DNA of 64,000 nucleotides from Candidatus Gastranaerophilales bacterium (GTDB lineage: Bacteria > Cyanobacteriota > Vampirovibrionia > Gastranaerophilales > Gastranaerophilaceae), in contig CANUDF010000001.1 of assembly GCA_947857085.1 (NCBI GenBank), positions 3,841 through 67,840 of the forward strand, given 5' to 3'. Shown here piece after piece: positions 22,899 to 39,490 of the stretch (position 1 is its first letter; each line of letters begins with the position of its first letter). The translations under genes and the position numbers were made by a program. Under the pieces are notes generated by a model. That model saw only the letters and a list, made by a program, of their open reading frames with translations, was not told the DNA's origin and searched no databases.

Positions 22899-22977
22899 GC
22901 AGAAAATAAAATTAATACAACAAACAAATATGATACTATAAATGTAGTATCCTACTTACTAAAAGCATATTATATCC

Positions 22978-25017
22978 CTACATATTTAGACTTTTTAATA
23001 TTAATTTTTGCTCTTGTAATGCATTATATAATGAAGATACTGCCCAAGCCAATGGTGCATTTGTGCCTTGTATCATTTTAGTTTTACCATTTACATCCGT
23101 AACATACTGTAAAGCTTCACTGACTGTTACACCTGGCATATCTAATCCATTAGCTTTTATTTGATTTATTTCTTTAGGGTTTTCATCACTTATTCTTGAA
23201 AGTGCTCTATTTAAATATTCTGTCTGTTTAGATTTCAAGGTCTTGATAAGTTGTCTCTCTTCACTTGTAAAATCCCTCTTTTCTTTTTTGGCAAGTTTAA
23301 TAAGTTTCTCAATTTGCTTTCCATATCCTACAGACATATCAGATACCATAAACCATTGAGCTTCTTTATTTGGTGTTGATAATTTCGCTCTTGCAAAAAA
23401 CATATCAGGATCTGAACAATCTTTCGATGCAAAATTATCTAAAATGCCTTTCCAATCCAAATTTAACTTTCCATTATTATCAATTGCATTAAAATAATTT
23501 AAATTTAAATAACTATCAGGAGAGCTGCCATATTCACCATTTTGTAATTCGAATTTAAATGGAGCATAACGAATTACACCATTTTCTCTGACAAGGTTAT
23601 CCTCAACTGATTGCAGGATTTCCATATGTTTCTTCACATCATCTATAACATTATCTGCTAATTTTATATCTGAAGTTGTTATAAAAATAAGAGAAGAATC
23701 ATGAGGCCTTATACCAGGAGCTTCTTCTAAATATGATTTTCGCACTCTTTGAGTTCCGGCTTCTATTAACTTATTGATTTCATCTTCTTTTAATGGATTT
23801 AATTCACTTAATCTGGCTCTAACTTTTTGTATTTCTACATTATTAGAATATTTAGGAGAATACAACATTTTTTTATAAGCTGCTAAAGCACTTCTTATAG
23901 CTTCCGTATCGGATGTCAAGCCACCTTTAAGTGGTATTTCTTCCCAATTGCCAGAAGATGGAGCTGTTGGATAGTCAATAGCTTTAAAATATTTACTCAA
24001 ATTATCAATTGCCTCTAATACATTTTTAGGTATTGAATCCGCTGATTGATAACCATATTTTTTACCTTTTCCTAAACCATCAATAATTCCATTACAAAAT
24101 TCCTTTAATGCAAGGCCATGTGATTCAAGCCTTTTATTATTAAACCAATTTAAATCAGGTTCTAATGTTTTAGGTAAAAATATATGAGGAATACCTTGTA
24201 AAGCATTACCATCACGATAATTTTCAGGAGCTGCTATTAACTTAGCAAAATTATCTTTTTGATAACCATAATATTCTCCAATAGTATTCAATGCCTTGGT
24301 CCATGTTTCAGGTCTTCTTTTTTTCTGAATATCGCCTATTCTCATAATATCAGTAATCCAGGATCTAGCACTCATATCCCAATTTTCATTGGCTCCACAA
24401 GTTTTTGGAATACCCCTGTTTTTATCTAAGACTATTCCAAAATTGTTGTCATCGCTCATGTCAAAAATACGTTTAGATTCCAAATATTTCTGCAACTTTG
24501 TCAAACTATCAGTGTTATATTCTTCTTTCATTAAACCAGCAATTTTTTTATTATGAACATTATAAACTACATTACCTAATTTTAATTTATTGGGCTTATA
24601 CTCTGTTGCTGCAATCATAACTCTTAGAGCATTCTTTAATGCCTCCATATTATTATCTTTATTTATTTTTTCAATAGTTAATATACTATTTATAGTAGTT
24701 AATTCTCTCGGATTTTCCGGATTATTAACAGTAAAAGAATTTGTTCCGAAAAATTTTCTTAACTTAACCAGCCATTTTTCATCATTTGAATCTAGTTTTT
24801 TATTATTTTCAATATTTATTGAAAGTTTTGTCAAAGCTTTTTTAGCAAAATTTAATTTTGAATTCCCTTCAAAAGATGGATAATATGAATTTGAAATTTC
24901 ACTCAATGAGAATAATATATTTTTTCTTTCTTTTGTTGATATAATACTATTATTGTTTTTATAATTTTTAGATTTTATATTGTTAGCTGTATACGATTGA
25001 ACTGCAGATATTTGCAT
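22978..25017 (-). CDS. Glycoside hydrolase family 15 (glucoamylase)-like protein
   Basis: GNWEEIP, HDSSLIFI, GVIRYAPF and TNAPLAWAVSSLY resemble the GH15 (alpha/alpha)6 blocks (WEE, DxSLL, RY, PLxWSxA). I prefer ATG 25017 over the GTG at 25035. Confidence 0.5.
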   Translation of the reverse strand: MQISAVQSYTANNIKSKNYKNNNSIISTKERKNILFSLSEISNSYYPSFEGNSKLNFAKKALTKLSINIENNKKLDSNDEKWLVKLRKFFGTNSFTVNNPENPRELTTINSILTIEKINKDNNMEALKNALRVMIAATEYKPNKLKLGNVVYNVHNKKIAGLMKEEYNTDSLTKLQKYLESKRIFDMSDDNNFGIVLDKNRGIPKTCGANENWDMSARSWITDIMRIGDIQKKRRPETWTKALNTIGEYYGYQKDNFAKLIAAPENYRDGNALQGIPHIFLPKTLEPDLNWFNNKRLESHGLALKEFCNGIIDGLGKGKKYGYQSADSIPKNVLEAIDNLSKYFKAIDYPTAPSSGNWEEIPLKGGLTSDTEAIRSALAAYKKMLYSPKYSNNVEIQKVRARLSELNPLKEDEINKLIEAGTQRVRKSYLEEAPGIRPHDSSLIFITTSDIKLADNVIDDVKKHMEILQSVEDNLVRENGVIRYAPFKFELQNGEYGSSPDSYLNLNYFNAIDNNGKLNLDWKGILDNFASKDCSDPDMFFARAKLSTPNKEAQWFMVSDMSVGYGKQIEKLIKLAKKEKRDFTSEERQLIKTLKSKQTEYLNRALSRISDENPKEINQIKANGLDMPGVTVSEALQYVTDVNGKTKMIQGTNAPLAWAVSSLYNALQEQKLILKSLNM

Positions 25018-25388
25018 AGACCTTCCCACTTTCACATTTACGTAAGTTTTATAGATTCATTTTCTGATATACCCCCAAAAAGATATCTTTTAGATATATG
25101 CCACTATATGCTAGTATTAATAAAACAAAACAAAACAAAAACAAAATATTTTTATTCTAATATGCTAACTTTTTTAATAATTTGTTACAATTGTATCACT
25201 TTTATTCGATTAAAACATAAAAAAGTGTCTGATAGTTGCTATTCAATCCAATCATAGTTTTTGAAGTTCATCAGAATGGATTTCATAAAATATTTCCCAC
25301 TAGGGGATTAAAAAAATTGCTTGCCCGAAATTCTCAAACTAAACGTTAAAATACAATTGTTTAGAGTCTTAACAACAAAATTCAGTCA

Positions 25389-25435
25389 TAAAAAAACTCC
25401 CCAGGTTGGACTCGAACAAACAACCTACTGGTTAA
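25389..25435 (-). repeat. Degenerate copy of the 3' half of tRNA-Asn (distal att-like repeat)
   Basis: This segment matches 39412..39457, which runs from the anticodon loop (TTAA) through the 3' end plus ~8 nt downstream. The copies differ by 2 substitutions and 1 A-run indel. Confidence 0.85.
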
Positions 25436-25568: not shown

Positions 25569-25862
25569 CTAAATAAAAAAGTCCTGATATCCAGTTAAAA
25601 CTCTTAATATATAAAGAATATCATCCTTAACATAGTATATAATTTGGTAATGTTTAGCTACAATACACTCTCTAACATCTCGTCTAACGAAATTAGATTT
25701 TCTGAATCCACTTTTAGGAAATAAAGCTAAAGTATTAAACTTTTTTTCAAAAAGGTCTATCATTTCAATAGCCTTAGCGACATTATCTTGGGCAATAAAA
25801 TCAAAAATATTTTGCATGTCTACTTCAGCAGCAGTTGTAATTATAATATTTAAGTTAGGCAT
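25569..25862 (-). CDS. parE: Type II toxin, ParE/RelE family
   Basis: 97 aa. It overlaps the upstream antitoxin ORF by 8 nt, and its C-terminal YQIIYYVKDDILYILRVLTGYQDF is typical of ParE. Confidence 0.75.
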   Translation of the reverse strand: MPNLNIIITTAAEVDMQNIFDFIAQDNVAKAIEMIDLFEKKFNTLALFPKSGFRKSNFVRRDVRECIVAKHYQIIYYVKDDILYILRVLTGYQDFFI

Positions 25863-26103
25863 ATTTCTTTCTTAAATCCTTAAATACTTCCTCGCTAGAG
25901 CGACCTTTACCAGCTTGCATTTCTTCCCAACCTTTTTCAATTTCAGAATTGAGGTTTTCAATATTTTCTTTAGAAATGTTATTATCTATAAAAGCAACCT
26001 GAACAGCAAATGAAATTGCGTCTTCTAATGTATCAAAAATTCCCTCGGAAACTTTAGCTTTTAAAAGATTTTCTATATTATTTGGTAAAGAAGATATATC
26101 CAT
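25855..26103 (-). CDS. Type II antitoxin, ParD-like
   Basis: 82 aa. It lies immediately upstream of and overlapping the ParE-like ORF. It is small and acidic, with a helical SEGIFDTLEDAISFAV segment. Confidence 0.6.
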   Translation of the reverse strand: MDISSLPNNIENLLKAKVSEGIFDTLEDAISFAVQVAFIDNNISKENIENLNSEIEKGWEEMQAGKGRSSEEVFKDLRKKYA

Positions 26104-26171: not shown

Positions 26172-26221
26172 AGCTGTAAAGTAACACTTAGTTTGAGAAA
26201 AAGTAACAGTAGGTTTGAGAA
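26172..26221 (+). repeat. Left-end site pair: two tandem ~22-bp sites (aaagtaacaNtNNgtttgagaa)
   Basis: aaagtaacacttagtttgagaa and aaaagtaacagtaggtttgagaa sit back to back. They are the inverted partners of 38790..38812 and 38918..38940. Confidence 0.7.
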
Positions 26222-26341
26222 TTTTATATGTTTAACTAAAATTTTTATGATGCTAATCAAATAATTTTATACGAAGTTTTCCGATGCAATAATTTCTTGT
26301 AAAAATTTTCTATTGTACTTGATTTAAAGCATTTTGATAGT

Positions 26342-27613
26342 ATGATTATATGCATGGTACCATGCTTAGATGATAGAATTAAAGAAAATAATAATTTTAC
26401 TATTTTAAATTATCAAGGTAGTAAGAAAAATTTGATTGATTTTATTCATAAGCATATAGATAATTTAATCATTCCAGAAAAAGCTTTTTTAGATATTTTT
26501 GCAGGAACTTGTGCTGTTGGCTATAGTTATAAGTCTTGTTGCCCAGTATATGCTAATGATTTAGAATATTATTCTTACTTAATAGCTGATTCTTTATTGA
26601 ATAATTATAATAACTATAATTTTAATAAGATAAAAAAAGAAATAGGCAATCAATTTAAAAACTTATACAATTTAAAATTAAAAAAATATGATAAGTGGAT
26701 TATTGCAGAAGAAACTTTTTTAGAATCCAATAAAATAGAAGATTTAATTGATTTATATAGCTCATATCCAACAATATGGAATAACGCCGAAATGATATTG
26801 GATAAAAAGCAATATATCCTTTTTACGTCATATTATGCTGGTAATTATTTTGGAATAAAACAAGCTATAGAAATTGATTGTTTAAGAAATTTAATTGAAA
26901 ACATTGATAGTAATTTATTCTCAATGTTAATATCATGTTTATTTTTTGCTATGAAAAATTGTGTATTTTCAAAGGATGGTCATATGGCTCAACCGTTAGA
27001 TTTGCATAAAAATGCTTCAAAACTAATATTTAAGCGCAAAAATTCTATTTTGGATAATTTTTATAGCAAATTAACGGAATACTTTTCTTCAGAGTTTATA
27101 AATACTAATTTTTCTAACTCCGCATATAATATGGATTTTGAAAATCTTATAAAGTTAAAAGAAATTCAAGATAATGTTGGACTTATATATGCTGATCCAC
27201 CATATACAGATATGCAATATTCTAGATACTATCATTTATTAAACATTGTTTCTAAATATGATTATCCAAAGCCAACATTAATAAAAAATGTATATACCAA
27301 AGGTTTATATACTGAAGGCAGAAGTCAATCTTTGCTTAGCCAAAAACGATATTGTCTAGAGCATTTTAGTAATCTTATTAACTTTTCAAAAAAATATAAC
27401 AAAAATCTTGCTATCAGCTTTGCATATCCCAATGATCCAATACTTCAAAAAACGGATAGATATGTTATGAGCATTGAAGAAATAGTAAGAGAATGTACCA
27501 AAGTCTTTAAAGAAAAAAATGTAAATGTTGTATCAACAAAATACAATCATTCAAACAATAGAAATACACAAACAAAAAAGGTATTAGAGTATTTAATACT
27601 ATGTAAATATTAA
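26342..27613 (+). CDS. Dam-like (D12 class) N6-adenine DNA methyltransferase
   Basis: It has NYQGSKKN (the Y-x-G-x-K block), FAGTCAV (motif I) and IYADPPY (motif IV), in the order I...IV. At 423 aa it is larger than canonical Dam. Confidence 0.7.
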   Translation: MIICMVPCLDDRIKENNNFTILNYQGSKKNLIDFIHKHIDNLIIPEKAFLDIFAGTCAVGYSYKSCCPVYANDLEYYSYLIADSLLNNYNNYNFNKIKKEIGNQFKNLYNLKLKKYDKWIIAEETFLESNKIEDLIDLYSSYPTIWNNAEMILDKKQYILFTSYYAGNYFGIKQAIEIDCLRNLIENIDSNLFSMLISCLFFAMKNCVFSKDGHMAQPLDLHKNASKLIFKRKNSILDNFYSKLTEYFSSEFINTNFSNSAYNMDFENLIKLKEIQDNVGLIYADPPYTDMQYSRYYHLLNIVSKYDYPKPTLIKNVYTKGLYTEGRSQSLLSQKRYCLEHFSNLINFSKKYNKNLAISFAYPNDPILQKTDRYVMSIEEIVRECTKVFKEKNVNVVSTKYNHSNNRNTQTKKVLEYLILCKY

Positions 27614-27614
27614 T

Positions 27615-29198
27615 ATGGAAATTTGCTTAGAAAAAATAAAAGATAAAATAAATAAAGCGACAGCTACCAATAGAAATGATCTATATGATTCACATATCTA
27701 TTGGTCACAAAAACCTTATAATATTTGTGATATTCTAATAAATTCATTTAGCAAAAAAGGTGATATTGTTTTTGATCCATTTCTAGGTTCTGGAGTAACA
27801 TTATTACAATCTATAAAAAAAGAGAATGATCGTATTGGTATTGGTTGTGAAATTAATGATGCACCTATTTTTATTGTTAATACCCTATTGGCAAAATATG
27901 ATACTAAAAAATTCAAAAAAATATCAGAAGAATTTATTCAACAATTAAAAAAACTATTACCATATTATTACACGAAATGTCCTTATTGTGGGAAAAATGC
28001 AGTAATAACATCTGTAATTTTTGATAAACCGTCAAGAAATGCTGATATTAATATTAAAACAATTAATTTTAGATGTTCTTGTACTAGTAAATCTACAAAA
28101 TTAGCTGATGATAATGATTACAAATCAATAAATATAAATGAAGAAATTAAAAATATTAAAAGCGAGTTTCTAATTCCGAACTCAAAAATAGCCGTATATG
28201 AAAATCAACATATTGATCAGATTTTTACAAAACGAAATTATCTAATTTTAGATAAAATTATAGGAATAATAAACCATCTTGAAAACTATAGTGATTTGTT
28301 TAAATATTTATTAATGTCTATTATTCATTTAGCAAAAATCACTGATACACATTCATCTTCACAGTGGCCGCTTTGGATTCCGAAGAATAACTGCGTTGAA
28401 AAAAACATTATTGATTTAATAGAAAAAAAAGTTATTAAATTTGAGAAAACAATAAAATATTTAAATAATAATTACTCTAACACTAACTCTTATAAATTAT
28501 TGCACAAGGGCAGTCAGTTTATAGATGATACAGATATTTCAGATGAATCCATTCAACTTATTATTACTGATCCTCCATACTTAGGACAAGTTGCATATTC
28601 AGAATATATGCAATTATATAAACCTTTTTTAAATTTAAATTTTAATTTAGACGATGAAATAATTGTGTCATCTGCACCTTCAAGAAATAAAAACGAAGAC
28701 CAATATTTCAAAGACCTAGATAATGTATTTTCAATATGTTCAAAAAAAATGAAAAATGAAGGTTATTTGTGTTTGTATTTTCATGATAGCAGTCTAGAAG
28801 TATGGGATAAATTAATTAATATATTGTCAAAAAATCACTTTAAATATTTATCACAAGCACATATACGAAAATCAAACACTTTAAAGAATATAATAAGCCC
28901 CAAAAAGTCTCTGAATGGAGATTGTATATTATTTTTCCAAAAGGATAATAACATTGCTTCGAATCCTATTGGTTCAGAAGATATATTAGAAATCGAACAA
29001 AATATTATAAAACAAGCGAAATTTTTAGTAAAACGAGCGAATTGCCTTTCTACTCCAGAATTGTATGATTTGGGTCTTATGGAAATTTTAATTCACAATG
29101 GATGGTTAAATCCATTATCAAAAAAATACAAATCTTTAGTTGATATATTTGAAAAGCATTTAATTTGGGATTCAATTAAATCAAAATGGACTCTTTAA
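27615..29198 (+). CDS. Alpha-class amino (N6A/N4C) DNA methyltransferase with Cys-rich insert
   Basis: It has VFDPFLGSGVT (motif I) near the N-terminus, a CPYCG...CSC insert, and IITDPPY (motif IV) about 260 aa later. It starts 1 nt after the upstream MTase stop. Confidence 0.7.
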   Translation: MEICLEKIKDKINKATATNRNDLYDSHIYWSQKPYNICDILINSFSKKGDIVFDPFLGSGVTLLQSIKKENDRIGIGCEINDAPIFIVNTLLAKYDTKKFKKISEEFIQQLKKLLPYYYTKCPYCGKNAVITSVIFDKPSRNADINIKTINFRCSCTSKSTKLADDNDYKSININEEIKNIKSEFLIPNSKIAVYENQHIDQIFTKRNYLILDKIIGIINHLENYSDLFKYLLMSIIHLAKITDTHSSSQWPLWIPKNNCVEKNIIDLIEKKVIKFEKTIKYLNNNYSNTNSYKLLHKGSQFIDDTDISDESIQLIITDPPYLGQVAYSEYMQLYKPFLNLNFNLDDEIIVSSAPSRNKNEDQYFKDLDNVFSICSKKMKNEGYLCLYFHDSSLEVWDKLINILSKNHFKYLSQAHIRKSNTLKNIISPKKSLNGDCILFFQKDNNIASNPIGSEDILEIEQNIIKQAKFLVKRANCLSTPELYDLGLMEILIHNGWLNPLSKKYKSLVDIFEKHLIWDSIKSKWTL

Positions 29199-29200
29199 CA

Positions 29201-31591
29201 CTAGCTTTCTAATATTCCATTATAATATTTGTTTGGAAATGCATCATTTAGTTGTTGGACAATTTCTTGACCATTTATTATTTTAATATCATTTGCGCAG
29301 GCTATTGTTTTTCCATCTTGCGTGTAATCTGATGTTGTAATACATACTGCGATATCGAAACCTCTTCGAATTTTTTCAGAATGTAAACGTTGAATTGGTT
29401 CGCTTCCAACATTGGCAACCCAACGTTTACATTGGAATAAGTATTTAGTTGTATTGCCATTTGTTATTTTTTTTGCGAGCAAATCAACACCTAGGTCTCC
29501 AGAACCTCCAGTATTAATTACATCAATATAGCCTTGCGCTTCGAGTAATGATTTTATAATTATTTCAAAATCCGTCCCCGATAAACATGATACATCTATT
29601 GCATCATCAGAAATTGCGTTTGTATATGTTTTTTTGATATAAACATTTTCATTGCAATCGCAATAATTTTTAATTATTTTTTTTATTTCATTTTGACAAT
29701 TATTATCATCTAAAAAACTATTAATAGAATTAGGATTACCATCACATAGTTTGTTTGCTATTTCAAAATAAAGATCATCTAATACAAATTGTCCGTTTTT
29801 TTCTAGTAATTCTTTTATAAATAACGGCATCAAATCATATAATTTTGTAAATAAATCATTATTGTCTTCAATATCAAGATATAACTTGTTACAGTTTATT
29901 CTCACTATTGCATTTGTGTCTATATGAAAATTTTGTTGTATTACAGAAGTAATCTTCTCAATATCACTTTCGGTTGCAATATAAGATTGTTTCTCTTTCA
30001 AAATGTCTAAAATATATTGCACGCAGGTAGTTAAAGTAATATCAGAATTTGCAGTTTGTAGTATTTTATTATATATTAATTTGACAACTTCAAATTCATA
30101 GTTTTTATTACCTACATACCAATAAGCTTCGGTTTTAGGCAATTTCTCGAAAAATACAATCATTTCTTTTGATAAGGTATTTTTGTATGCAGATTGTTTT
30201 CTGATTGTCGGATCATTTTTATCAATTCCAATTCTGGCAATATACTCAAACCCATTTTTTCTTGCAAGATTTATAATTTGAGTCAAAGTTTCAAAATATT
30301 TTCTTGCACCAAGTTTAATTGTAAAGATAGCAAGTTTGTTATCTTTTAAAACCTTGATAAAGTTTTTAAACATGGTATCTATATCATTAAAATAATTATC
30401 AAGAGATTGTTTGTTTGGTCTTGAAGGTGCATTTGTTAACACTAATTCATTATTAAGCATATCCTCAGTTAATTCAAATTCACCAGGTTTATAAAATTTA
30501 TTCAACCATTTTCTATATAACTGATTCCATTCTAAATATGGCACTTGATCTGTATAAGGGAAGTCAGTATATATCATATCAAATTTTTGTTCTAGGCAAT
30601 TATTTATATAGGCTTGATAAGGAACGTTATATAGTTCGTATAAATTGTTATTTTCCGGATTTGTTGATAATATTTCGCAAAATTCTTCCTGAAATTTAAT
30701 AAGTGCTTCAACTTTGTTTTTAAATATTTCCCAAACATTCGTTTCTTGTGCTCCTTTCATAACAACATGGTATAAACGGTCAGTTGATGAACCATACATT
30801 GCAATTCTAGATAATGCAAGAGATGATACTAACATGAATTCTAAAAAATCTTTTTCCGGACTATTTGTTAAGTTTTTAATACCATTTTGAAGAATCAATA
30901 GTGCTTTTTGATTTCTTTTAGTAAAAAGCCTATTATAATAATCGGCACCAGTTGCTGCAGTTATATTTATTCTGCTATTTTCAATATATTTATCATTAGG
31001 AAAATCTTCAATATGTTCATTATTTATTTCATTTAATTTTTCTAAATCATAGCTAGAAAAATGTTTATATAAATTATGACATTTAGAACACCTTTCAACT
31101 AATTTCACATTTTTCCCATCTTGTATATCTCTATTATCCGTTGGATTAAAATATTCTTCTGTTTGTGGATCATAAAATAATTTTGAAATATAGTTTTTTT
31201 CTCCACAACATTCTGTTTCATATAGATTCATAATTAACGGCTTGGTATCAGTTTCTAATTGATTTAGATAATTTTGTAATATTTCCAAGTTTATTTTCTT
31301 AAATATTGTTTTTACAATAGAAAAAGTATAATTATCAATTTCATTCCCAATGATTTTTTTATTAGCCATTGATGCCGCGATAATAAAAGAACCAGACCCC
31401 ATAAATGGATCATAAAGTACATCATTTGGACCAGCTAGCGTTTCTATGATGTTGTGTGCAATGTCAATTGACTTTCTACCGGGAAAGTTAAACACAGTCT
31501 TAAAAGAATGAGGGACTTTATTTTCAACACCTTCCAAATTAGCAATTAAAGTTCTAATTTTTTGATAAGTTTCTTCATTGATTCTTTTCAT
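29201..31591 (-). CDS. Fusion protein: alpha-class DNA methyltransferase-like module plus C-terminal Mrr-type (PD-(D/E)xK) restriction endonuclease domain
   Basis: The N-terminal module (LYDPFMGSGSF, CC..CSKC insert, IYTDFPY, NAPSRPNK) is colinear with 27615..29198. The C-terminal FEIIIKSLLEAQGY..GGSGDLGVDLL..FQCKRW..VG..CITTSDYT matches the Mrr catalytic domain pattern. Confidence 0.7.
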   Translation of the reverse strand: MKRINEETYQKIRTLIANLEGVENKVPHSFKTVFNFPGRKSIDIAHNIIETLAGPNDVLYDPFMGSGSFIIAASMANKKIIGNEIDNYTFSIVKTIFKKINLEILQNYLNQLETDTKPLIMNLYETECCGEKNYISKLFYDPQTEEYFNPTDNRDIQDGKNVKLVERCSKCHNLYKHFSSYDLEKLNEINNEHIEDFPNDKYIENSRINITAATGADYYNRLFTKRNQKALLILQNGIKNLTNSPEKDFLEFMLVSSLALSRIAMYGSSTDRLYHVVMKGAQETNVWEIFKNKVEALIKFQEEFCEILSTNPENNNLYELYNVPYQAYINNCLEQKFDMIYTDFPYTDQVPYLEWNQLYRKWLNKFYKPGEFELTEDMLNNELVLTNAPSRPNKQSLDNYFNDIDTMFKNFIKVLKDNKLAIFTIKLGARKYFETLTQIINLARKNGFEYIARIGIDKNDPTIRKQSAYKNTLSKEMIVFFEKLPKTEAYWYVGNKNYEFEVVKLIYNKILQTANSDITLTTCVQYILDILKEKQSYIATESDIEKITSVIQQNFHIDTNAIVRINCNKLYLDIEDNNDLFTKLYDLMPLFIKELLEKNGQFVLDDLYFEIANKLCDGNPNSINSFLDDNNCQNEIKKIIKNYCDCNENVYIKKTYTNAISDDAIDVSCLSGTDFEIIIKSLLEAQGYIDVINTGGSGDLGVDLLAKKITNGNTTKYLFQCKRWVANVGSEPIQRLHSEKIRRGFDIAVCITTSDYTQDGKTIACANDIKIINGQEIVQQLNDAFPNKYYNGILES

Positions 31592-31765
31592 ACTTAAACT
31601 ACCTCAACTCTTTAAAACTATTCTTCATTTATCTCATAAAAATATGTTTATATCAATTTAGAATATAAATTTTTGTACTTAAAAATTAAAAAATAATTAA
31701 TTTTGAGCCGATTTGCTAAAATTTAATATATGATTTTCATGAGAAATTGAACTATAGAGTTAAAT

Positions 31766-33442
31766 ATGGTGGAAGAGGAAAAAGTTAAAACTATTAATCT
31801 CAATATAATGTTATTAAAAAATTGTTGTAATTTAAACAATCGAGAAGATTATATTGATAAATATTCAGAAAAAAATATTATAAAAGGTGGCAAGAGCAAT
31901 GATTCTTACTTTTTATATAAAAATGGTCGAGGAAAAAGCAAACCTTCTTGGGTTTTAGAATTTGATGAAAAAGTATTAGATGGGATCAAAGATTCTTTTG
32001 AAGATACTTCTTCTGAAGGACTTTCTGTTATTAAACAGATTAATTACAAAAATATAAATTATTTATTTTCAATAAATTTTGGTCAAGGATGGAGAAATAT
32101 AAAAAAAGACAAAATAGAAGATACTTTTGGTATATATACAACAATTGCAATAATAGAAGAAGGTGCTAAAATACGTAGAGCAGGAACACGAAATATATCA
32201 AGCAATCCTAAAAATACAGAATTTCAACATGCTTTTGAAATTACAAATGAGACATTTAACTCAGAATTAGAAGATAATGATATTATAAGACATTTGAATG
32301 CAACAGCTGATACTTCTACTATTAGCTCGGTCATTGGTAAATATGGTCCTTTAAATATAAGAATGAGGTTTAAGGAATCAGAAATCCCTTGTTGGGACTA
32401 TCTTGATGACAGATTATTGTCATTATTAGAACAGTATTTAAAAATACAAACAAATGAAAGAATTATAAATAAATATTTTAAAGGATTACGCCCATTACCT
32501 AGTGCTAAGCAAAAAGAATTAAATGATAACCTTGACTCTAAAATACTCGAAGATACTTCTAAATTTTTCTTATTTGAACCAGAAATAGACTATGATCCTA
32601 CTATTATTTCAAGTATCAAATACAAATTAAAAGAGGATTCTAGAGCCTCTGAAACATACGAAAATTTAAAATTGGAAGATTATCTAGTTTTAAGAGAATC
32701 CAAAATGCCTTTAAATTTAAATGAAGATAAAGTCTTTTTAATAAATGAAGATGGGAAAAAGTGTAAAGAATGGACCATTTTAAAGTGTCTATATGGCGAA
32801 ATTAAACAAGACAATCAAGTCTATATATTATCAAATTCTGTCTGGTATGGTATGTCTAATGATAAATACGAACGAATTAATAAAAATATTAAAGCGATAC
32901 AAGAAGATTTTTATATAGATGATTGTACCAAGGAATCTACACAAAAAAGTATTATGAAGCAAAAATTAAAAGGTGTAAAACAAATAGCCAAAGAACGAAT
33001 TTTTAATACGGCATTATGTAAACAACTTTCAGGTGAATTATTTGATGAAATTAGTCAACAAATTACTATTGATGGTGACAAGATGGAAGTTTGTGATATT
33101 TTTAATCCAAAAGAAAAAGAATTTATTCATTCAAAAATAAGTTCTGATGCTGCGAAACTTAGCCATCTTTTTAATCAGGGATATGTTTCTGCAAGAGCAT
33201 TCGCATCGATGAAAGAACAATATGTATCATTAGTAAATGAAAAAATGAAAAATGAAGAACATAAATTAGATGATTCACAAAATTCGCATCAAAAATATAC
33301 CATAAGGTATCTAATAATAAATGGTAATACTAAAAATAGATTAACTTTTATAAGCAAGTTAGCTCTTGATAAAATTATTACCGATTTAAAAGGTTTTGGT
33401 TATAATGTTAAATTGTCTTGGGTAAATCAAATCAGTTTATAA
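31766..33442 (+). CDS. Uncharacterised protein, probably DUF6119 / TIGR04141 'sporadically distributed' family
   Basis: At 558 aa, its N-terminal INLNIMLLK..., FSINFGQGW and C-terminal MEVCDIF..FIHSKISSDAAKLSHLFNQGYVSA fit my recollection of that family (E.CD..iH.K...S..LSHLf.QG.vSa). This is not verified by search. Confidence 0.45.
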   Translation: MVEEEKVKTINLNIMLLKNCCNLNNREDYIDKYSEKNIIKGGKSNDSYFLYKNGRGKSKPSWVLEFDEKVLDGIKDSFEDTSSEGLSVIKQINYKNINYLFSINFGQGWRNIKKDKIEDTFGIYTTIAIIEEGAKIRRAGTRNISSNPKNTEFQHAFEITNETFNSELEDNDIIRHLNATADTSTISSVIGKYGPLNIRMRFKESEIPCWDYLDDRLLSLLEQYLKIQTNERIINKYFKGLRPLPSAKQKELNDNLDSKILEDTSKFFLFEPEIDYDPTIISSIKYKLKEDSRASETYENLKLEDYLVLRESKMPLNLNEDKVFLINEDGKKCKEWTILKCLYGEIKQDNQVYILSNSVWYGMSNDKYERINKNIKAIQEDFYIDDCTKESTQKSIMKQKLKGVKQIAKERIFNTALCKQLSGELFDEISQQITIDGDKMEVCDIFNPKEKEFIHSKISSDAAKLSHLFNQGYVSARAFASMKEQYVSLVNEKMKNEEHKLDDSQNSHQKYTIRYLIINGNTKNRLTFISKLALDKIITDLKGFGYNVKLSWVNQISL

Positions 33443-33462
33443 TTAAAAATCAAAAGCAAAAC

Positions 33463-33506
33463 ATTGTTCAAAAAGTGTTCAACAGTGTTCAAAAGGTGTT
33501 TAAAAA
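33463..33506 (+). repeat. Four tandem 10-11-bp repeats (GTGTTCAAMA-like), helically phased
   Basis: The repeats read attgttcaaaaa / gtgttcaaca / gtgttcaaaag / gtgtttaaaaa. They lie in the 147-bp gap between two convergent genes. Confidence 0.7.
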
Positions 33507-33589
33507 TCAAAATAGGTATCAGAGTGCCTTTTTGAAATTTTCATGCAAAATAACGCAAAATAAAAGGAGCTGTTAAACTCCCAAATAGA

Positions 33590-34423
33590 CTACTCATGAA
33601 AAAAATTTTCGGTATCAAATCGTGAAAAGTTTAGGTTTCTGAATTTTTCTATTTTATTATCTGAATATTCTTTCTTCACCCAACGAAGATATGTTTTAGC
33701 AGAAGATACTTTTGCTCGATTAATTTTTATTTTAATCAATCTCTCAAATCTTTGAATTGCAAGTTCTCGGGCTTCACTTAAAGAATACTGTTTTGGCGAA
33801 AGATAATATTCTTTAAAAAAATAATATATTTCACCGGGTTCTCTTGTTTCTGATCCTACAAGATTTATCAAGCCATTTCTTGAAATTTCATATTTAAATT
33901 TATTATATTTATTTAATGTAATATTGGCTGTTTTTAACGTCTTTTTAAGTTCTCTCTCATTCATTCCTTGAGTTTGTTTTAATAACTTGAACATATCTTT
34001 TATATTTTGTTTAGTTTCAGGAGGAGCAAAGAAATAATCAATAAAGCCATCTAACTCATTAATATATTTGGGAAAAACTTCTTTAGGCTTTTTAACTTGA
34101 AATGGCAACATATGACGCATGCAGTCGCTGTCACTTTCTATTGTTTTTTCTTTGGATTTACTTATTTGAGGAATATAAATATATGAATCCCCATTATCTC
34201 TTATAATATTTTTTGACGTTAGTTTTTCTAAAATCGGAATAATTTCTATTTTTGATTTTTCAAGTAGGATTTCTAAATCTTCTACTGTAAAAATATTTAA
34301 TTTCTTAATCGCTATTTCAATATTTTTTTCTAATAAATTTTTCCTATGTCTTGTTTCCACCTTAAAACTCCAGTTCTTGCTTTGTAATTTTCTTATATCC
34401 GTTAGTTTGTGCCAATTCTTCAA
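33590..34423 (-). CDS. Hypothetical HTH/winged-helix-like protein, third gene of the transposition operon
   Basis: The ORF-track ATG 34423 overlaps the ATPase gene by 62 nt. An in-frame GTG at 34360 lies 1 nt after the ATPase stop, with GGAG 7 nt upstream, so it is the likely coupled start. Confidence 0.5.
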   Translation of the reverse strand: MKNWHKLTDIRKLQSKNWSFKVETRHRKNLLEKNIEIAIKKLNIFTVEDLEILLEKSKIEIIPILEKLTSKNIIRDNGDSYIYIPQISKSKEKTIESDSDCMRHMLPFQVKKPKEVFPKYINELDGFIDYFFAPPETKQNIKDMFKLLKQTQGMNERELKKTLKTANITLNKYNKFKYEISRNGLINLVGSETREPGEIYYFFKEYYLSPKQYSLSEARELAIQRFERLIKIKINRAKVSSAKTYLRWVKKEYSDNKIEKFRNLNFSRFDTENFFHE

Positions 34424-35036
34424 TCTTTAAAATATAAATTACAATTTGCCTTAGTCGATTAGCATTTTTTGCAATCATTTCAATTACTTCATCATCAAGC
34501 GGAACTTCGCATAATTTTGTAACAATTTCTTTTATATCTTCAAAATCAAAAGGGACAAATTTATAAATACCCAAAAGCCTGTCATATAAATGCTTAAATC
34601 TTTTTAATTTTTTATCAGCAGCTCCCATTCCAACTAATAAAACAGGAATTCCTGTTTTATCGTGCAAATCACGAACTGTTTCAATAGCTCTTGTAGATTC
34701 TACCAAGTAATCAACTTCATCCACGATTAACATTCTTGGTTTTTCTATTAACTTCGCAACAGCTTGATCAAATAATTCAAAAGATGTTTTCTTTGGCTCT
34801 TCGCCTAATTCCTTAACAAGAGCTTTTAAAAACCAAATTCTTGACATTCCATTTGTTGCTGTAACCAGTATGGCATTTTGGTTTAAAGTCCACCAAAGAA
34901 CAGCATTGCTTTTACCCAATCCTGGTTCACCATATACAAGTCCAATTTTAGGAACATTATATTTTGCATTATTTAATCTTTCTATTAATGAAACAAATGC
35001 TCTAACATTTTTTGTTTTTACAAATGTTCTTCTCAT
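34362..35036 (-). CDS. MuB/TniB-like AAA+ ATPase (transposition target-capture protein)
   Basis: It has Walker A GEPGLGKSN and Walker B LIVDEVDYL. It is 224 aa and lies 12 nt downstream of the transposase gene. Confidence 0.65.
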   Translation of the reverse strand: MRRTFVKTKNVRAFVSLIERLNNAKYNVPKIGLVYGEPGLGKSNAVLWWTLNQNAILVTATNGMSRIWFLKALVKELGEEPKKTSFELFDQAVAKLIEKPRMLIVDEVDYLVESTRAIETVRDLHDKTGIPVLLVGMGAADKKLKRFKHLYDRLLGIYKFVPFDFEDIKEIVTKLCEVPLDDEVIEMIAKNANRLRQIVIYILKIEELAQTNGYKKITKQELEF

Positions 35037-35048
35037 AATTATCTCCCT

Positions 35049-36986
35049 TTAATCCTCAACGCCATACAACAATTTATATTCGGTTGATTTTTTATAATTA
35101 TCCACCCATTTTTGCTCATCTTCAGATAAATCGGGTTTGTTTTTTAGATAATCATATCTTTCGTATTTATTATGAAATACAATTTTTTCAGGTTGAATTT
35201 CATCTTCTTTTAAGCTTTCAATGAGCAACTTTTTATCTTCTATGCTTGGCTTATAAATCACATTATCGGTTTCATTTAGTGCCGGTAAATATACCTTTTC
35301 TTTTTTCAGTTCTCTAAGATATTGTTTTACAGTTTGCTTTTCAAGTTCTTTTTGTTGTTTAATTCGTTGTTTTAATTCTTCCACATCTTTTGCTTCGCCT
35401 GTATAATTAGCAAGTGGATGAATTGGGGCAAGTCTTTCGGCTGTACATAAAAATTCGCCCGACATTGTAAAAACTTTGATATAAGACAAATCAAAAAGAC
35501 TATATTTTATAACAACTTGAGTCCTTAATCCGTATAAACTTTCGTGATAATAATCGGATTTTAAAAATCTTATTCCGTTTCTGCCAATATTTTTAATAAC
35601 ATTTACCATCATTAAATCATCTAGTGTTGAAATATCAATGCCATTACCTTTTCCCGCATCAAATACTTCCCCAATACTTAAACCCTTTACATTAGGACAA
35701 GGTTGTGCATAATGAAAGTTAACCATCCAACGAGTAATATAATTTATAACTTCATCCATTGTAGGAATGTAATTGCTGTGAATTTCTTTGTGTAAGCGTT
35801 CATTGCGTTTTTTATAAGCTGGTTTATTATCAATACAAGAACCCACAAAAGAAGGCAATATACGTTCAAAACTATCCTGCATTTCCCTAAAAAATCTTTC
35901 TATCGGTTTAGCTTTGGCATTATATGGTTTTGCGAAAATCGGAGTTATTCCAAGTTTTATAAATAAACCGCTAATATCATCATCTGCTGTAAAATAATCA
36001 GCCTTATATGCTTTTCCGTTATCTTGATAAACAAATTTTGGATATTTACCCAATGCAATAATTGAATTTCTGAGTGCTGAAGCAATACATTGGGTATTTT
36101 CTTCCAACATAACTTCAAAACCAACCATTGCTCCAGATTTCCAATCTTGATAAGCAGCAATTGTCGGTCTGCATGGTTTGCCTGTAAATGGATTTATAAC
36201 CTCAAATGCAAGCCTATGCCCATCACCAATTAAAACATCTCCTACATTTAATTTTAAAATATCTCTTTCGATATATGGTATAACTTTATCTCTTAAGGCT
36301 TTTGCACCTTCTCTTGCAAATATCCACATATCATAGTGTTCCTGTTTATACTTGGAGATAAACCTCCGATATGTCATCTCGCATGCTAAATTAGTTACAC
36401 CCTGCTGTAATAAAAGATGCTTTGTTAATTTGATAGCTTTTCCAATATTTGGTTGGTTAGGGTTCAGTAATATTTTTAAAACTGTTTCCTTTTCTTTTTC
36501 TGAAAATTTATCTTTATTCGGTTGTGATTTATATTTTGGAGCTAGGACTTTCCAATTATCAGCATTTTCTTTTAGAAGTCTATCCCAACGCATTATTGTT
36601 GATATTGCTATATTGTTAATATTTTCATACTGATTATTTTTATTTGGCATGTTATTATAAACAGATACAAATTCTTTAATAGCATCAACCTTTTTACCTT
36701 TATAATTAACGCAAAAAGCACGCCATTTCATTACAATATCAAATTTAGTTAATGCTCGTTTTTTACTCTTTTCACTAATGGGAGTGTTAAAATTCTCTGT
36801 GGAAATTTCGGTCGAATATAGTTTATTAACTTCATCTTGCCACTCTTGTTCAATAGATGAAACTAAAACTTCATATCTCTGGCAAATTTTTCGCCCTATA
36901 TATTTTCCGCTTGTTACTAATTTGCGAACAGATCTATCAGATACGCCTTTAATTTTTGCAAGCTCGGTTGCTCTAATCCACTCCAT
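35049..36986 (-). CDS. Mu A-like DDE (rve/Mu-transposase) transposase
   Basis: It has an N-terminal HTH (IRATELAKIKGVSDRSVRKL). The DDE core is LIGDGHRLAF..RPTIAAYQDWKSG, VYQDNGKAY and KPIERFFREMQ. The GDG(H/Y)...RP...(W)QD spacing is like phage Mu A. Confidence 0.75.
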   Translation of the reverse strand: MEWIRATELAKIKGVSDRSVRKLVTSGKYIGRKICQRYEVLVSSIEQEWQDEVNKLYSTEISTENFNTPISEKSKKRALTKFDIVMKWRAFCVNYKGKKVDAIKEFVSVYNNMPNKNNQYENINNIAISTIMRWDRLLKENADNWKVLAPKYKSQPNKDKFSEKEKETVLKILLNPNQPNIGKAIKLTKHLLLQQGVTNLACEMTYRRFISKYKQEHYDMWIFAREGAKALRDKVIPYIERDILKLNVGDVLIGDGHRLAFEVINPFTGKPCRPTIAAYQDWKSGAMVGFEVMLEENTQCIASALRNSIIALGKYPKFVYQDNGKAYKADYFTADDDISGLFIKLGITPIFAKPYNAKAKPIERFFREMQDSFERILPSFVGSCIDNKPAYKKRNERLHKEIHSNYIPTMDEVINYITRWMVNFHYAQPCPNVKGLSIGEVFDAGKGNGIDISTLDDLMMVNVIKNIGRNGIRFLKSDYYHESLYGLRTQVVIKYSLFDLSYIKVFTMSGEFLCTAERLAPIHPLANYTGEAKDVEELKQRIKQQKELEKQTVKQYLRELKKEKVYLPALNETDNVIYKPSIEDKKLLIESLKEDEIQPEKIVFHNKYERYDYLKNKPDLSEDEQKWVDNYKKSTEYKLLYGVED

Positions 36987-37135
36987 TAAATCCTCCTGTA
37001 TTTTAATAATTTGTATTGAAGTACAATTTTTGTAGATTAATCAAGATAGGTTTTATATTATACTAAATAGACTAATGGTATAGTGGAATAATATACCATG
37101 TAATTCTAAAGTTTTGTTATAAATTACTCGGGCTG
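36987..37135. promoter_or_regulatory. Divergent control region between the transposase and the Mor-like gene, with an operator-like palindrome
   Basis: There is a perfect 8-bp inverted repeat, atggtata(9 nt)tataccat, at 37076..37100, and a second small palindrome, ttgta-ttgaag-tacaa, near 37011..37026. Confidence 0.35.
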
Positions 37136-37471
37136 ATGGTTATTATAATATTTCTCATGTATAATTGGTTTATGTACGACAAAGAACCTAAATGGGCAAA
37201 ATATATTACAGAAGATTCTATTGATGACTATGGTTTATTAGACTTAGTCAACATAATTGGACTTGAAGCAACAAAAAAGTTGATGATTCATTATGCAGGA
37301 AATAGCATTAGAATTCCAAAATCAGCCAATACAAAATATAAACATCAATATGTTTTAGATAATTATGATGGAACAAAAATCTCTAGAATGAGAACTGCTA
37401 TTGAATGTCAAATTACTGAAAATTATATTTTTAAAATTATGAAAATGTATAAAGATAAAAAGCCAATGTAA
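37136..37471 (+). CDS. Mor-like transcription activator family protein (tentative)
   Basis: At 111 aa, its AGNSIRIPK...YDGTKISRMRTAIECQITENYIFKIM fits the Mor pattern (G...iyIPK...f.G.n...la..y.ls.r.iyrI). It is divergent from the Mu A-like gene. Confidence 0.4.
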   Translation: MVIIIFLMYNWFMYDKEPKWAKYITEDSIDDYGLLDLVNIIGLEATKKLMIHYAGNSIRIPKSANTKYKHQYVLDNYDGTKISRMRTAIECQITENYIFKIMKMYKDKKPM

Positions 37472-37474
37472 AAA

Positions 37475-38677
37475 TTATACATTATAACCTAAGTATCTCA
37501 GTCCTGAATTTGTATTTTCGTTTCTAATTGGCAATTCATCCCTAAGAAGTCCAATAACTTCTTGTGCTGTGGATTCCCCAAAATATCTTATAGAAGAATT
37601 TTTTATTAATTTATCAAGTTCTTTTGGAGAAGCTATTTTTAATTTCTGAATACACGATTTTACATCTTTTACATTGTTTTCTTTTGCAAATTTCTCCTTC
37701 CAGTTAAATCTTACAGAATTGGTCAAATAAGTATTTATGTTATTTGCGAGAAATTCGGATATATCTTCTAAATTTGCACTATCTATGTTCTGATCCGAGA
37801 ATATTTCTAGTGCATTTTTTCTATAATTCAATCTGATGCCTTCATTATCCCATACAGAATCAGAAATTATCCAATTATGATATTCTTGAATACAATTTTT
37901 TAAAAGTTTTGCTTTTTGTTCACTATTTAAATTGTTTACTTCAAATGAATAGTAGTAATCTTTTGAAGAATTATTCTCTGAATGATGGAATAAGTAATTC
38001 AAGAAACTATCTATTTCAAATTTTAGCGGTGAATTTTTCCAAATTCTACCATAGGATTCATATTGTTTTGACAACTCATTATATTCATTCAGGAACTGTT
38101 CATAACTACATTTTTCAGTAAGCTCTTTTGGCAATTTAATAATTGGTTTTAAATCAGGATTAAAACCTTCTGTATCAATATAAGTTGAATTATTCAATGC
38201 TTCATCCAACATTTCTTGATTAACTGGTGTTCCAAGTTCCCAAATTTCATTGTACATTGCTTCAAATCTATCAACATCTAATATATCACCGGCAACACCT
38301 GTTTCATAGTTTACATATAATCCTCTATAGGTCATATTAGCAGAGGTTACAACCGAATAATCATCCATTAAATACATTTTTGCGTGTAAATGTTTTAAGC
38401 TTCTTAATTCACAATTATTACCTAAGAAAAATTTTAAAATTTTATAATTATTGATTGAAATATTATTCAAATCAGTAAGAAGTCTGAAATTTGGCTTGTG
38501 TTTCTTAATTTTGCTTATTTGAAAAATATAATAAAAAATCTTTTCACTACTTATAAATGGTGAAGATATCCATAGACGATTACATATTCTGCCTGAATGT
38601 TCGTGTAGATAATTGGTAATACAATCCATTTTTGTAGTATACCTAAAATCAATTAAATTATTAATTAAATCTGCCAT
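37475..38677 (-). CDS. Single-HKD phospholipase D-superfamily nuclease (Nuc/BfiI-like) with unknown C-terminal domain
   Basis: It has one canonical HxK(x)4D(x)6..SxN motif, LHAKMYLMDDYSVVTSANMT, in the N-terminal ~150 aa. The C-terminal ~230 aa end in an HhH-like segment, FGESTAQEVIGLL. Confidence 0.6.
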   Translation of the reverse strand: MADLINNLIDFRYTTKMDCITNYLHEHSGRICNRLWISSPFISSEKIFYYIFQISKIKKHKPNFRLLTDLNNISINNYKILKFFLGNNCELRSLKHLHAKMYLMDDYSVVTSANMTYRGLYVNYETGVAGDILDVDRFEAMYNEIWELGTPVNQEMLDEALNNSTYIDTEGFNPDLKPIIKLPKELTEKCSYEQFLNEYNELSKQYESYGRIWKNSPLKFEIDSFLNYLFHHSENNSSKDYYYSFEVNNLNSEQKAKLLKNCIQEYHNWIISDSVWDNEGIRLNYRKNALEIFSDQNIDSANLEDISEFLANNINTYLTNSVRFNWKEKFAKENNVKDVKSCIQKLKIASPKELDKLIKNSSIRYFGESTAQEVIGLLRDELPIRNENTNSGLRYLGYNV

Positions 38678-38789
38678 ACTTGCTCCTAAATACTATTATA
38701 TCTAACTATATTATTATAAATAAGCATACAAAACTAGTTCCGATAAATTGGTTCCGCAAATTTAAAAACTTTACTGATTTTTTATAAAT

Positions 38790-38940
38790 TTCTCAAACTC
38801 AATGTTACTTTTAAAAATCAGCTTTAAATATTTATATACATTAAATTTTAGGTGTTTATACATAAAACAAATTTATTGGGTTTGAGCCATAAAAGTTCCG
38901 CAAAATTACATTTTTTAAATTCTCAAACATATGTAATTTG
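38790..38940 (+). repeat. Right-end sites (ttctcaaac...gt(t/a)a(c/t)), inverted relative to 26172..26221
   Basis: The sites are ttctcaaactcaatgttactttt at 38790..38812 and aattctcaaacatatgtaatttg at 38918..38940. The first matches the reverse complement of 26199..26221 at 20 of 23 positions. Confidence 0.65.
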
Positions 38941-39078
38941 CCTTTCCGACCAATCCTGTTTATATTTCCGACCAATCCGTTTGTACTCATTTTATGTGTT
39001 ACTTTACACCTTATGATAATTTTTCCGAAACTTGGTGTTAATTTTTTAATTCCTTGCACAACTGGACTATACCAAAAT

Positions 39079-39262
39079 AATCAAACTATCCGTACACCTT
39101 AAAAACGGTGCTAAAACCAGCTATATTAAGAAAAAATCAAACTATCCGTACAGTCCCCAAAAAGTCCATTTCGGCAGTTTGATTTTTTTGGTAAACTTAA
39201 TTTTCCGACCCAAAAACGCCCTCGCAGAGCGGGCTGTCCAAAATAATCAAAGTATCCGTACA
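39079..39262 (+). repeat. Three direct copies of an 18-bp motif, aatcaaa(c/g)tatccgtaca
   Basis: The copies lie at 39079..39096, 39135..39152 and 39245..39262 (start spacings 56 and 110 bp). The reverse complement begins TGTAC. Confidence 0.8.
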
Positions 39263-39418
39263 AATAAAACCGGTCGTTAAATTACAATAGCCAAAATAAA
39301 TTAAATAATAAGTGCAGACAATAATAATTTTATTCAAGGGTAAATAATTATTTTTTTGGTCAATATATGGTCAATTTTTTTTAGTCGATTTTCGAGGGGG
39401 CTGAAACCCAATAAAAAA

Positions 39419-39490
39419 CTCCCCAGGTTGGACTCGAACCAACAACCTACCGGTTAACAGCCGGTTGCTCCGCCATTGAGCTACTGAGGA
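39419..39490 (-). tRNA. tRNA-Asn (anticodon GTT)
   Basis: The reverse complement TCCTCAGTAGCTCAATGG...CCGGCTGTTAACCGG...GGTTCGAGTCCAACCTGGGGAG folds into a cloverleaf with a CTGTTAA anticodon loop. CCA is not encoded. Confidence 0.9.

Follow-up and report, generated by a model that had tools for sequence, protein, structure and literature searches.

How the restriction and modification parts of one restriction-modification (R-M) system come to share a recognition site is a long-standing question. A 64,000-nucleotide stretch of DNA from a Candidatus Gastranaerophilales bacterium (assembly GCA_947857085.1, contig CANUDF010000001.1, positions 3,841 to 67,840; the whole stretch is referred to here as “the window”) carries a gene that bears on this question. 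The product of this gene, which we call ORF A (open reading frame A), is a putative restriction protein that contains a full paralog of the methylase encoded next to it, methylase B, a relationship that can be read from the sequence. ORF A also has an unusual catalytic motif IV, DFPY. Here, we ask what such a protein does and what the change in motif IV means. We consider it probable that ORF A is the restriction subunit, possibly with modification activity of its own, of a conserved three-gene Type II R-M cassette that combines a Type IIS-like layout with a Type IIG/IIC-like restriction protein.

ORF A is 796 amino acids (aa) long and has an ATG start codon, as checked by translation. Its parts are as follows:

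29201..31591, minus strand: ORF A, a methylase-paralog module, a connector and an Mrr-type nuclease; proposed R (or R-M) subunit (translation, Pfam, PADLOC, protein search)
29927..31567, minus strand: methylase-like module, aa 9-555, a full-length paralog of methylase B (hhalign, BLASTP, PADLOC, AlphaFold2 [AF2], Foldseek)
31391..31411, minus strand: motif I, DPFMGSG, aa 61-67, the S-adenosylmethionine (SAM)-binding loop (translation, conservation in 117 sequences)
31079..31210, minus strand: C128, C129, C168 and C171, in the insertion between motifs III and IV (invariant alignment columns)
30554..30565, minus strand: motif IV, D343-F344-P345-Y346, with TTC as the phenylalanine codon (translation, conservation in 117 sequences)
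29588..29926, minus strand: connector, mostly helical and fusion-specific, ~aa 556-668 (outside the alignment with B; predicted secondary structure)
29255..29584, minus strand: Mrr_cat nuclease domain, aa 670-779 (Pfam, E 2e-22)
29483-29497, minus strand: DLGVD nuclease motif (translation)
29426-29434, minus strand: QCK nuclease motif (translation)

ORF A is a genuine gene rather than a chance ORF, because 491 database proteins match it at E ≤ 1e-5. The best 120 of these 491 relatives are ~795 aa long and at least 49% identical to it; few of them are named, either as “restriction endonuclease” or as “DUF2034 domain-containing protein.” The start codon is also right, because the N-terminus is conserved from M1-K2 onward in a 20-sequence alignment. 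A nuclease domain (Mrr_cat, aa 670-779) and a DNA methylase domain (the module at aa 9-555) are united in this polypeptide. Within the module, Pfam recognizes N6_N4_Mtase at aa 29-93 only, i.e., the block of motifs X, I and II, and it finds no ATPase domain anywhere in ORF A. The domain order proposed in an earlier note on this DNA, with the methylase-like module N-terminal and the Mrr-type catalytic domain at the C-terminal end, is borne out by Pfam; it is the reverse of that in the characterized Type IIG enzymes, such as BpuSI (PMC3185434). By contrast, the “~300-aa unassigned linker” of the earlier note is mostly methylase body: BLASTP and profile alignments leave a connector of ~110 aa, and a Pfam search of aa 486-668 gave no match above threshold for it.

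The kinship of the module with methylase B extends over its full length. BLASTP aligns residues 38-483 of ORF A with residues 31-443 of B (27% identity, E 2e-29), and hhalign, comparing profiles built from 39 orthologs of each protein, equates ORF A 9-555 with B 2-497 (probability 100%, E 5e-43). A single PADLOC Type II methylase model, PDLC03319, covers ORF A 38-558 and B 27-526. ORF A thus holds a B-type methylase in full, with both the cysteine insertion and the C-terminal helical tail. Its motifs run in the order X/I/II/III, insertion, IV-VIII, i.e., with an alpha-like, Dam-like topology. The AF2 model of aa 1-490 (predicted local distance difference test [pLDDT] 86.2; predicted template modeling [pTM] score 0.87) has a Class I Rossmann-like methylase fold, with E. 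coli Dam as the top Foldseek matches (probability 0.99; template modeling score 0.40-0.50 on the target). The residues associated with SAM binding, i.e., motif I (F-x-G-x-G) and an acidic residue in motif II, are present, with motif I followed by the motif II/III block E84-I-D86-N87-Y88. Across 117 sequences, F63 and G65 are invariant, G67 is glycine in 90 and alanine in 26, and the glutamate E84 is kept in 115; this conservation is looser than that of B. The insertion between motifs III and IV is strand-rich and modeled with high pLDDT, and its four cysteines, C128, C129, C168 and C171, are invariant in the 20-sequence alignment. B has an aligned C..C / C.C pair, and the insertion of ORF A probably forms a zinc ribbon.

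The nuclease motifs of ORF A are all intact. Motif I is F675-E676 in a helix, motif II is D699-x-G-x-D703, and motif III is Q720-x-K722, with E739 in the next helix. Conservation reaches 116-117 of 117 full-length relatives at each of G672, F675-E676, D699, G701, D703, Q720, K722 and E739, which removes the concern, raised in the earlier note, that the C-terminal domain might lack catalytic residues when properly aligned. Mrr motifs I-III were defined and mutated in the Type ISP enzyme LlaGI, where mutagenesis shows their importance (PMC2790908). Foldseek matches the nuclease part of ORF A to the nuclease domains of MspJI, AspBHI, FokI and AF1548. The earlier note saw a paradox in the fusion of an active methylase to a domain from the classically methylation-dependent Mrr family. 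There is no such paradox, because the Mrr-type domain already occurs together with a methylase in LlaGI, and cleavage by the Type ISP R-M enzymes LlaGI and LlaBIII is not directed at methylated DNA (PMC2790908). Furthermore, Pfam detects no Mrr_N, SRA or other known modified-base reader domain in ORF A.

No solved structure resembles the whole of ORF A, as judged by sequence and profile searches of the PDB and by Foldseek with the full-length AF2 model (pLDDT 84.5, pTM 0.81). The PDB searches matched only the motif I block, with small beta-class methylases such as DpnA and MboIIA, and Foldseek gave weak, domain-level matches only.

ORF A is accompanied by two methylase genes on the opposite strand:

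27615..29198, plus strand: methylase B, 527 aa, with motif IV TDPPY (28566-28580) and motif I DPFLGSGVT (translation, Pfam, PADLOC)
26342..27613, plus strand: D12-class (Dam-like) adenine methylase, 423 aa, with motif IV ADPPY (27191-27205) (Pfam MethyltransfD12, E 2e-14)

The D12 gene is the first of this M1-M2 operon, and the B gene is convergent with that of ORF A, with 2 nt between the stop codons. Scanning one genome per species for orthologs of ORF A yielded 43 loci in 43 species. The hosts are mostly Clostridia, together with a Gastranaerophilaceae metagenome-assembled genome (MAG), Veillonella, Lactobacillus, Alkalibacterium, Gilliamella and Aggregatibacter; the closest ortholog (64% identity) is that of the Gastranaerophilaceae MAG (locus L001). 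At all 38 loci with downstream DNA, orthologs of B (46-68% identity) and of D12 (42-55%) are encoded convergently to A; at the remaining five, the contig ends within ~250 nt of the A gene. Motifs I and IV of the B orthologs are invariant at all 38 loci. Identities to the window proteins co-vary (r=0.93 for A and B; r=0.83 for A and D12), as expected if the three genes are inherited together. The earlier suggestion that B supplies the protective methylation is plausible, given that B and D12 are obligatory partners wherever there is downstream DNA.

The same association is seen far from the window. Four distant fusions (30-46% identity) also keep B-type and D12 partners. Two fusions with DPPY or DPPW at motif IV, P0121 and P0144, have D12 and N6_N4 methylases as partners, the three genes being co-directional for P0144. 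For P0140, a DPPY protein 32% identical to ORF A, the partners are a single 1101-aa D12-N6_N4 fusion (L045, 6751-10056; L046, 2900-6205). On the Clostridium butyricum megaplasmid pCFSA3989, the NCBI annotation of the trio reads restriction endonuclease, DNA methyltransferase and DNA adenine methylase. Thus, the three-gene R-M cassette is widespread rather than a one-off fusion, and the occurrence of the family across many genera and several phyla makes duplication testable as a route to matched specificity. Two methylases, or a fused double methylase, are the standard solution for asymmetric recognition sites (PMC12707154). The two-methylase arrangement of Type IIS systems is found at all 38 flanked loci and in the four distant relatives, with the two enzymes presumably assigned to different strands. 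Searches of the literature on Mrr_cat-methylase fusions and on R-M enzymes with an N-terminal methylase and a C-terminal nuclease, with REBASE, which may hold predictions, outside their scope, gave no description of the present family. A paper on HVO_A0006 was set aside, since it concerns an N-terminal Type IIG fragment.

Several further observations concern the composition of the cassette. At two DPPY-type loci that we examined, an ORF of 167-168 aa overlaps the start of the R gene (L053, 5481-5987; L044, 4151-4654); in C. butyricum, the small ORF overlapping the R gene encodes a Cro/C1-type helix-turn-helix protein resembling Type II controller proteins. The window has no equivalent of the controller, with a 174-nt gap between the A gene and a divergent gene for a DUF6119 protein. 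The DUF6119 protein was considered as a fourth component of the cassette and rejected, being absent from all 43 ortholog loci by tblastn. Separately, a search of cluster representatives found ~10 more proteins of ~910-990 aa whose alignment with A is confined to the C-terminal half, starting at about residue 410-460; these may be further D12-N6_N4 fusions. At L039, the A ortholog is split into two frames at ~9875-9884, a sign of either a frameshift in the R gene or a misassembly.

Translation confirms the motif IV sequences given in the earlier note, i.e., DFPY in ORF A and TDPPY in B. The canonical form of this motif is (D/N/S)-P-P-(Y/F/W); ORF A keeps the aspartate and the tyrosine, and the first proline is replaced. 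The replacement is not peculiar to the window. Among the 117 sequences, the four positions are D in 116, F in 116, P in 116 and Y in 117, and the most conserved stretch of the whole protein surrounds the motif: YTDFPYTDQVPYLE.NQLYR.W. DFPY is found in 118 of the 120 close clusters (the best 120 of the 491 relatives) and at 41 of the 43 genome loci, the exceptions being DFSY (L015) and DIPY (L019). In a wider family search, made exhaustively over 1.84 billion cluster representatives, the fusion family extends to 28-46% identity. Motif IV is DPPY or DPPW in these distant members; the Mrr motifs are kept, and F-x-G of motif I and the glutamate of motif II persist down to 28-30% identity. In a neighbor-joining tree, the DFPY sequences form a single clade that lies within the DPPY/DPPW fusions. 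Because architecture and partners were in place before the proline-to-phenylalanine change, the role of the module is not set by DFPY. This pattern also speaks against taking DFPY as a sign of lost activity: the motif is fixed in a whole clade whose DPPY/DPPW sister fusions share both architecture and partners.

DFPY occurs a second time, in stand-alone methylases of 500-520 aa, 117 of whose 120 clusters carry it. Among them are P0204, P0236 and P0286 from Parvimonas micra; PDLC03319, the PADLOC model that covers ORF A and B, gives P0204 a score of 658 bits. In three unrelated genomic contexts, including that of Parvimonas micra CP031971.1 (methylase gene at L055, 5001-6563), the stand-alone protein is the sole DNA methylase, and it is encoded together with an overlapping downstream ORF of 358-365 aa (the pairs span L048, 6001-8614; L052, 4991-7596; and L055, 5001-7629). 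Two homologs of this partner ORF from unrelated contexts are 41% identical to one another, and it has no Pfam or PADLOC assignment. The gene overlap, the identity across contexts, and a D...D-L-K stretch seen by eye make the partner a candidate nuclease. The two genes are probably an uncharacterized Type II R-M pair, and look like a mobile one; if the partner is a nuclease, the DFPY methylase must be active there. These observations come near to what the earlier note named as a refutation of its idea, namely that DFPY is common among active family members, although the activity is only inferred. A literature search on DFPY and methyltransferases found nothing relevant, and a bacterial methylome of Parvimonas micra was likewise not found.

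A change from proline (CCN) to phenylalanine (TTY) requires two nucleotide substitutions. Two independent fixations of a two-nucleotide change argue for a selected, functional state, and DFPY is a conserved family trait rather than a mark of decay. Its fixation in two independent methylase clades suggests that annotation pipelines relying on the textbook (D/N/S)PP(Y/F/W) rule are too strict.

The cassette of the window is carried by a mobile element:

26175..39008 (possibly to ~39290), strand not assigned: Tn7-like transposon carrying the cassette, ~12.8 kb (block shared by six contexts, terminal repeats)

The exact ORF A protein is listed on 31 contigs, 23 of which we examined. A block of 99.2-99.6% identity is common to the window and six unrelated flanking contexts, always starting at 26175 and ending at 39008/39011 or at ~39290. 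Its ends are perfect 13-bp terminal inverted repeats, TGTAAAGTAACAC ... GTGTTACTTTACA, with TGT/ACA termini. The ends of Tn7 are likewise TGT/ACA. There is no matching 5-bp target duplication at the ends (ATAGC vs CCTTA). The transposition genes of the block are those for a Mu/TnsB-type DDE transposase, a TniB-like AAA+ protein and an ORF of 256/277 aa. It also carries genes for a Mor-like protein, a PLD-family nuclease and the DUF6119 protein, and the three R-M genes. The region of the cassette has a low GC content (24-31%, against 33-39% in the flanks). Since the block is nearly identical in six unrelated contexts, the element was recently mobile, and the R-M cassette is cargo of a recently mobile Tn7-like transposon, which shows a route by which such systems move between genomes. 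The Gastranaerophilaceae MAG (L001) likewise encodes a TnsB homolog upstream of its A ortholog. The segment 39012-39290, in which a 22-nt repeat occurs three times (39075-39262), is also found in L059, L061 and L062 and is absent from L060 and L063; the sixth context, L064, is truncated by a contig border. The segment could represent additional end sites of the transposon, forming a second set, or a small element in its own right.

ORF A and its partners share features with several known types of restriction system. Like the Type IIG/IIC enzymes (BpuSI, MmeI, Eco57I, and the Thermus TspGWI/TaqII family), ORF A unites a nuclease and an amino-methylase in one polypeptide with a helical connector, and it would be expected, like them, to cleave at a distance from its site. 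Eco57I-type systems also keep a separate methylase. However, the characterized Type IIG enzymes have an N-terminal PD-ExK nuclease, a gamma-class methylase and a C-terminal target recognition domain. In ORF A, the order is reversed (methylase, connector, nuclease), the methylase is alpha-order and N6_N4-like with a cysteine-rich insertion, and the nuclease is Mrr-type (QxK). In addition, the ORF A system has two extra methylases and a DFPY motif IV, and methyl transfer by ORF A is a predicted possibility only. In BpuSI, the nuclease is N-terminal and the methylation and recognition domains are C-terminal (PMC3185434).

The gene set as a whole resembles Type IIS systems such as FokI, with two methylases of different types that are strictly linked and sometimes fused (L045/L046), a convergent R gene, and an R protein with separable recognition and cleavage parts; this fits the general scheme of PMC12707154. 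The difference is that the recognition part of ORF A is a complete methylase paralog with SAM motifs rather than a dedicated DNA-binding domain. LlaGI and LlaBIII likewise combine an Mrr-family nuclease (E, D-x-G-x-D, Q-x-K) with a methylase in one polypeptide, but the nuclease of LlaGI is N-terminal and a helicase-like ATPase motor lies between nuclease and methylase, whereas ORF A has the opposite order and no ATPase. Finally, the catalytic domain of ORF A belongs to the same family, and has the same motifs, as those of E. coli Mrr and the MspJI family. In E. coli Mrr, the modified-base reader is a winged helix. Neither E. coli Mrr nor the MspJI family is known to have a cognate methylase, whereas ORF A has a methylase module and two cognate methylases. 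The MspJI family pairs its nuclease with an SRA-like modified-base reader (PMC12707154). The best reading is that ORF A would work as Type IIG/IIC enzymes do, within a gene set of Type IIS style, and not as a Type IV Mrr enzyme. That a restriction protein should be a paralog of the methylase of its own system makes an attractive evolutionary example, yet the family is common and lies within known R-M logic. It may yield enzymes that cut at a distance, with a specificity set by a methylase-type module.

We propose the following mechanism. D12 and B would protect host DNA, most likely by each methylating one strand of an asymmetric site. ORF A would have arisen when a B-type methylase was duplicated and fused, via the helical connector, to an Mrr-type PD-QxK nuclease. 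Its methylase-derived module would be the DNA-recognition part, binding the site, probably with SAM bound, and flipping the target adenine into the D-F-P-Y pocket. If the adenine is unmethylated, the tethered nuclease would cut nearby, at a distance from the site; methylation by B would block cutting. DFPY would be a selected form of motif IV, fixed after a single origin in the fusion family.

A number of observations weigh against the proposed reading. In the same 39 genomes (the 38 loci plus the window), motif I of A varies at three positions (D in 34 and E in 5; S in 32, G in 5 and A in 2; G in 34 and A in 5), whereas all eight specified positions of B motif I, DPF.GSGVT, are invariant in 39 of 39. 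The last glycine of motif I is also replaced by N or A in some DPPY fusions. The looser motif I in A than in B hints at weaker selection on SAM chemistry. The Pfam N6_N4_Mtase model misses the motif IV half of ORF A, and since B has never been lost from any locus, methylation by ORF A cannot replace the protection provided by B. Moreover, no PADLOC restriction-enzyme model spans the full-length protein, our literature search found no biochemical data for any family member, and the asymmetry of the recognition site is only inferred. The variable last glycine of motif I was also tried as a gauge of ORF A activity and is suggestive only, since the D12 neighbor itself reads FAGTC at this motif, while B-type methylases keep the last glycine invariant.

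Much of this evidence is shared by an alternative in which the module has lost methyl transfer altogether. In such a protein, the module would sense sequence and methylation state, flip the adenine, and license the nuclease if the base is unmethylated, with all methylation coming from B and D12; the proline-to-phenylalanine change would have helped to abolish turnover or to reject N6-methyladenine (m6A). The retention of B and D12 at every locus, which makes methylation by A at least insufficient, fits this idea, as do the greater variability of motif I in A than in B in matched genomes, its variability in the DPPY fusions, and the failure of the motif IV half to reach Pfam detection. However, DPPY/DPPW sisters share the architecture and partners, such that DFPY cannot be what defines a reader role; D343, Y346, F63, G65 and E84 are near-invariant over deep divergence; and DFPY is also the motif of stand-alone methylases on which host protection must depend if the neighboring ORF is a nuclease. 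We regard loss of methyl transfer as possible but doubtful. A more specific version, in which the pseudo-methylase copy in the restriction subunit binds SAM and flips adenine without methylating it, acting as a sensor of “site present and unmethylated,” with the phenylalanine tuning the pocket against m6A or turnover, seems to us somewhat less likely again. If true, it would be a clear natural case of a restriction enzyme gaining the specificity of a methylase by duplication, with the catalytic pocket repurposed for reading. The variation in motif I and the constant presence of B leave room for, and do not prove, a site- and SAM-binding module that methylates poorly or not at all; we lean slightly toward a module that retains methyl transfer.

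Two further alternatives were weighed. A methylation-dependent enzyme of Type IV, in which the module recognizes foreign methylated DNA and the Mrr-like nuclease cuts it, is suggested by the placement of the catalytic domain in Pfam Mrr_cat and by a weak match (23 bits) to the PADLOC model mREase_IV. Type IV enzymes have a modified-DNA reader and lack a cognate methylase; ORF A has no Mrr_N or other known reader domain in Pfam, and it shows strict linkage to two adenine methylases that look active, including its own paralog, so that cutting their product would be self-destructive. Together with the role of Mrr-type motifs in LlaGI, which does not target methylated DNA, this makes a Type IV enzyme extremely unlikely. 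It is also very unlikely, if a little less so, that the cassette mainly serves the transposon for addiction or stabilization, or is a remnant in decay, instead of encoding a functional defense nuclease. Carriage on a recently mobile Tn7-like element and the apparent frameshift in the L039 ortholog would suit that idea; however, ORF A is intact in the window, the identical protein is found on at least 23 contigs, the family is full-length in 43 species and mostly outside this transposon, and addiction and defense are not mutually exclusive for R-M systems.

Other genes in and around the transposon deserve mention. The DUF6119 protein (558 aa; 31766-33442, plus strand), a TIGR04141 “sporadically distributed” protein, is encoded between the R gene and the genes for transposition; it has no PADLOC match and is a candidate independent cargo or defense gene. 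The region 37136-38677, inside the transposon, encodes the 400-aa PLD-family nuclease, with weak PADLOC matches to DISARM DrmC models (best E 2e-06), and, beside it, a 111-aa ORF with a sub-threshold Pfam match to the Mor transcription activator (21.4 bits; cutoff 24.9). Just outside the transposon end, at 25569-26103 on the minus strand, two overlapping small ORFs encode a ParE-family toxin (Pfam E 2e-13) and an 82-aa upstream partner with no family match, probably a toxin-antitoxin pair. A 45-nt direct repeat with 96% identity occurs at 25391-25435 and 39413-39457, the second copy being the 3' end of a tRNA-Asn gene (39419-39490, minus strand). The arrangement resembles an att duplication, with a tRNA-integrated island enclosing both the transposon and the ParE-type pair, although no integrase gene was seen for the putative island. 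Lastly, a low-GC region outside the transposon, 21093-25035, encodes a 685-aa ORF without a Pfam or PADLOC match and a 601-aa protein with a dual-specificity phosphatase domain and DUF6829.

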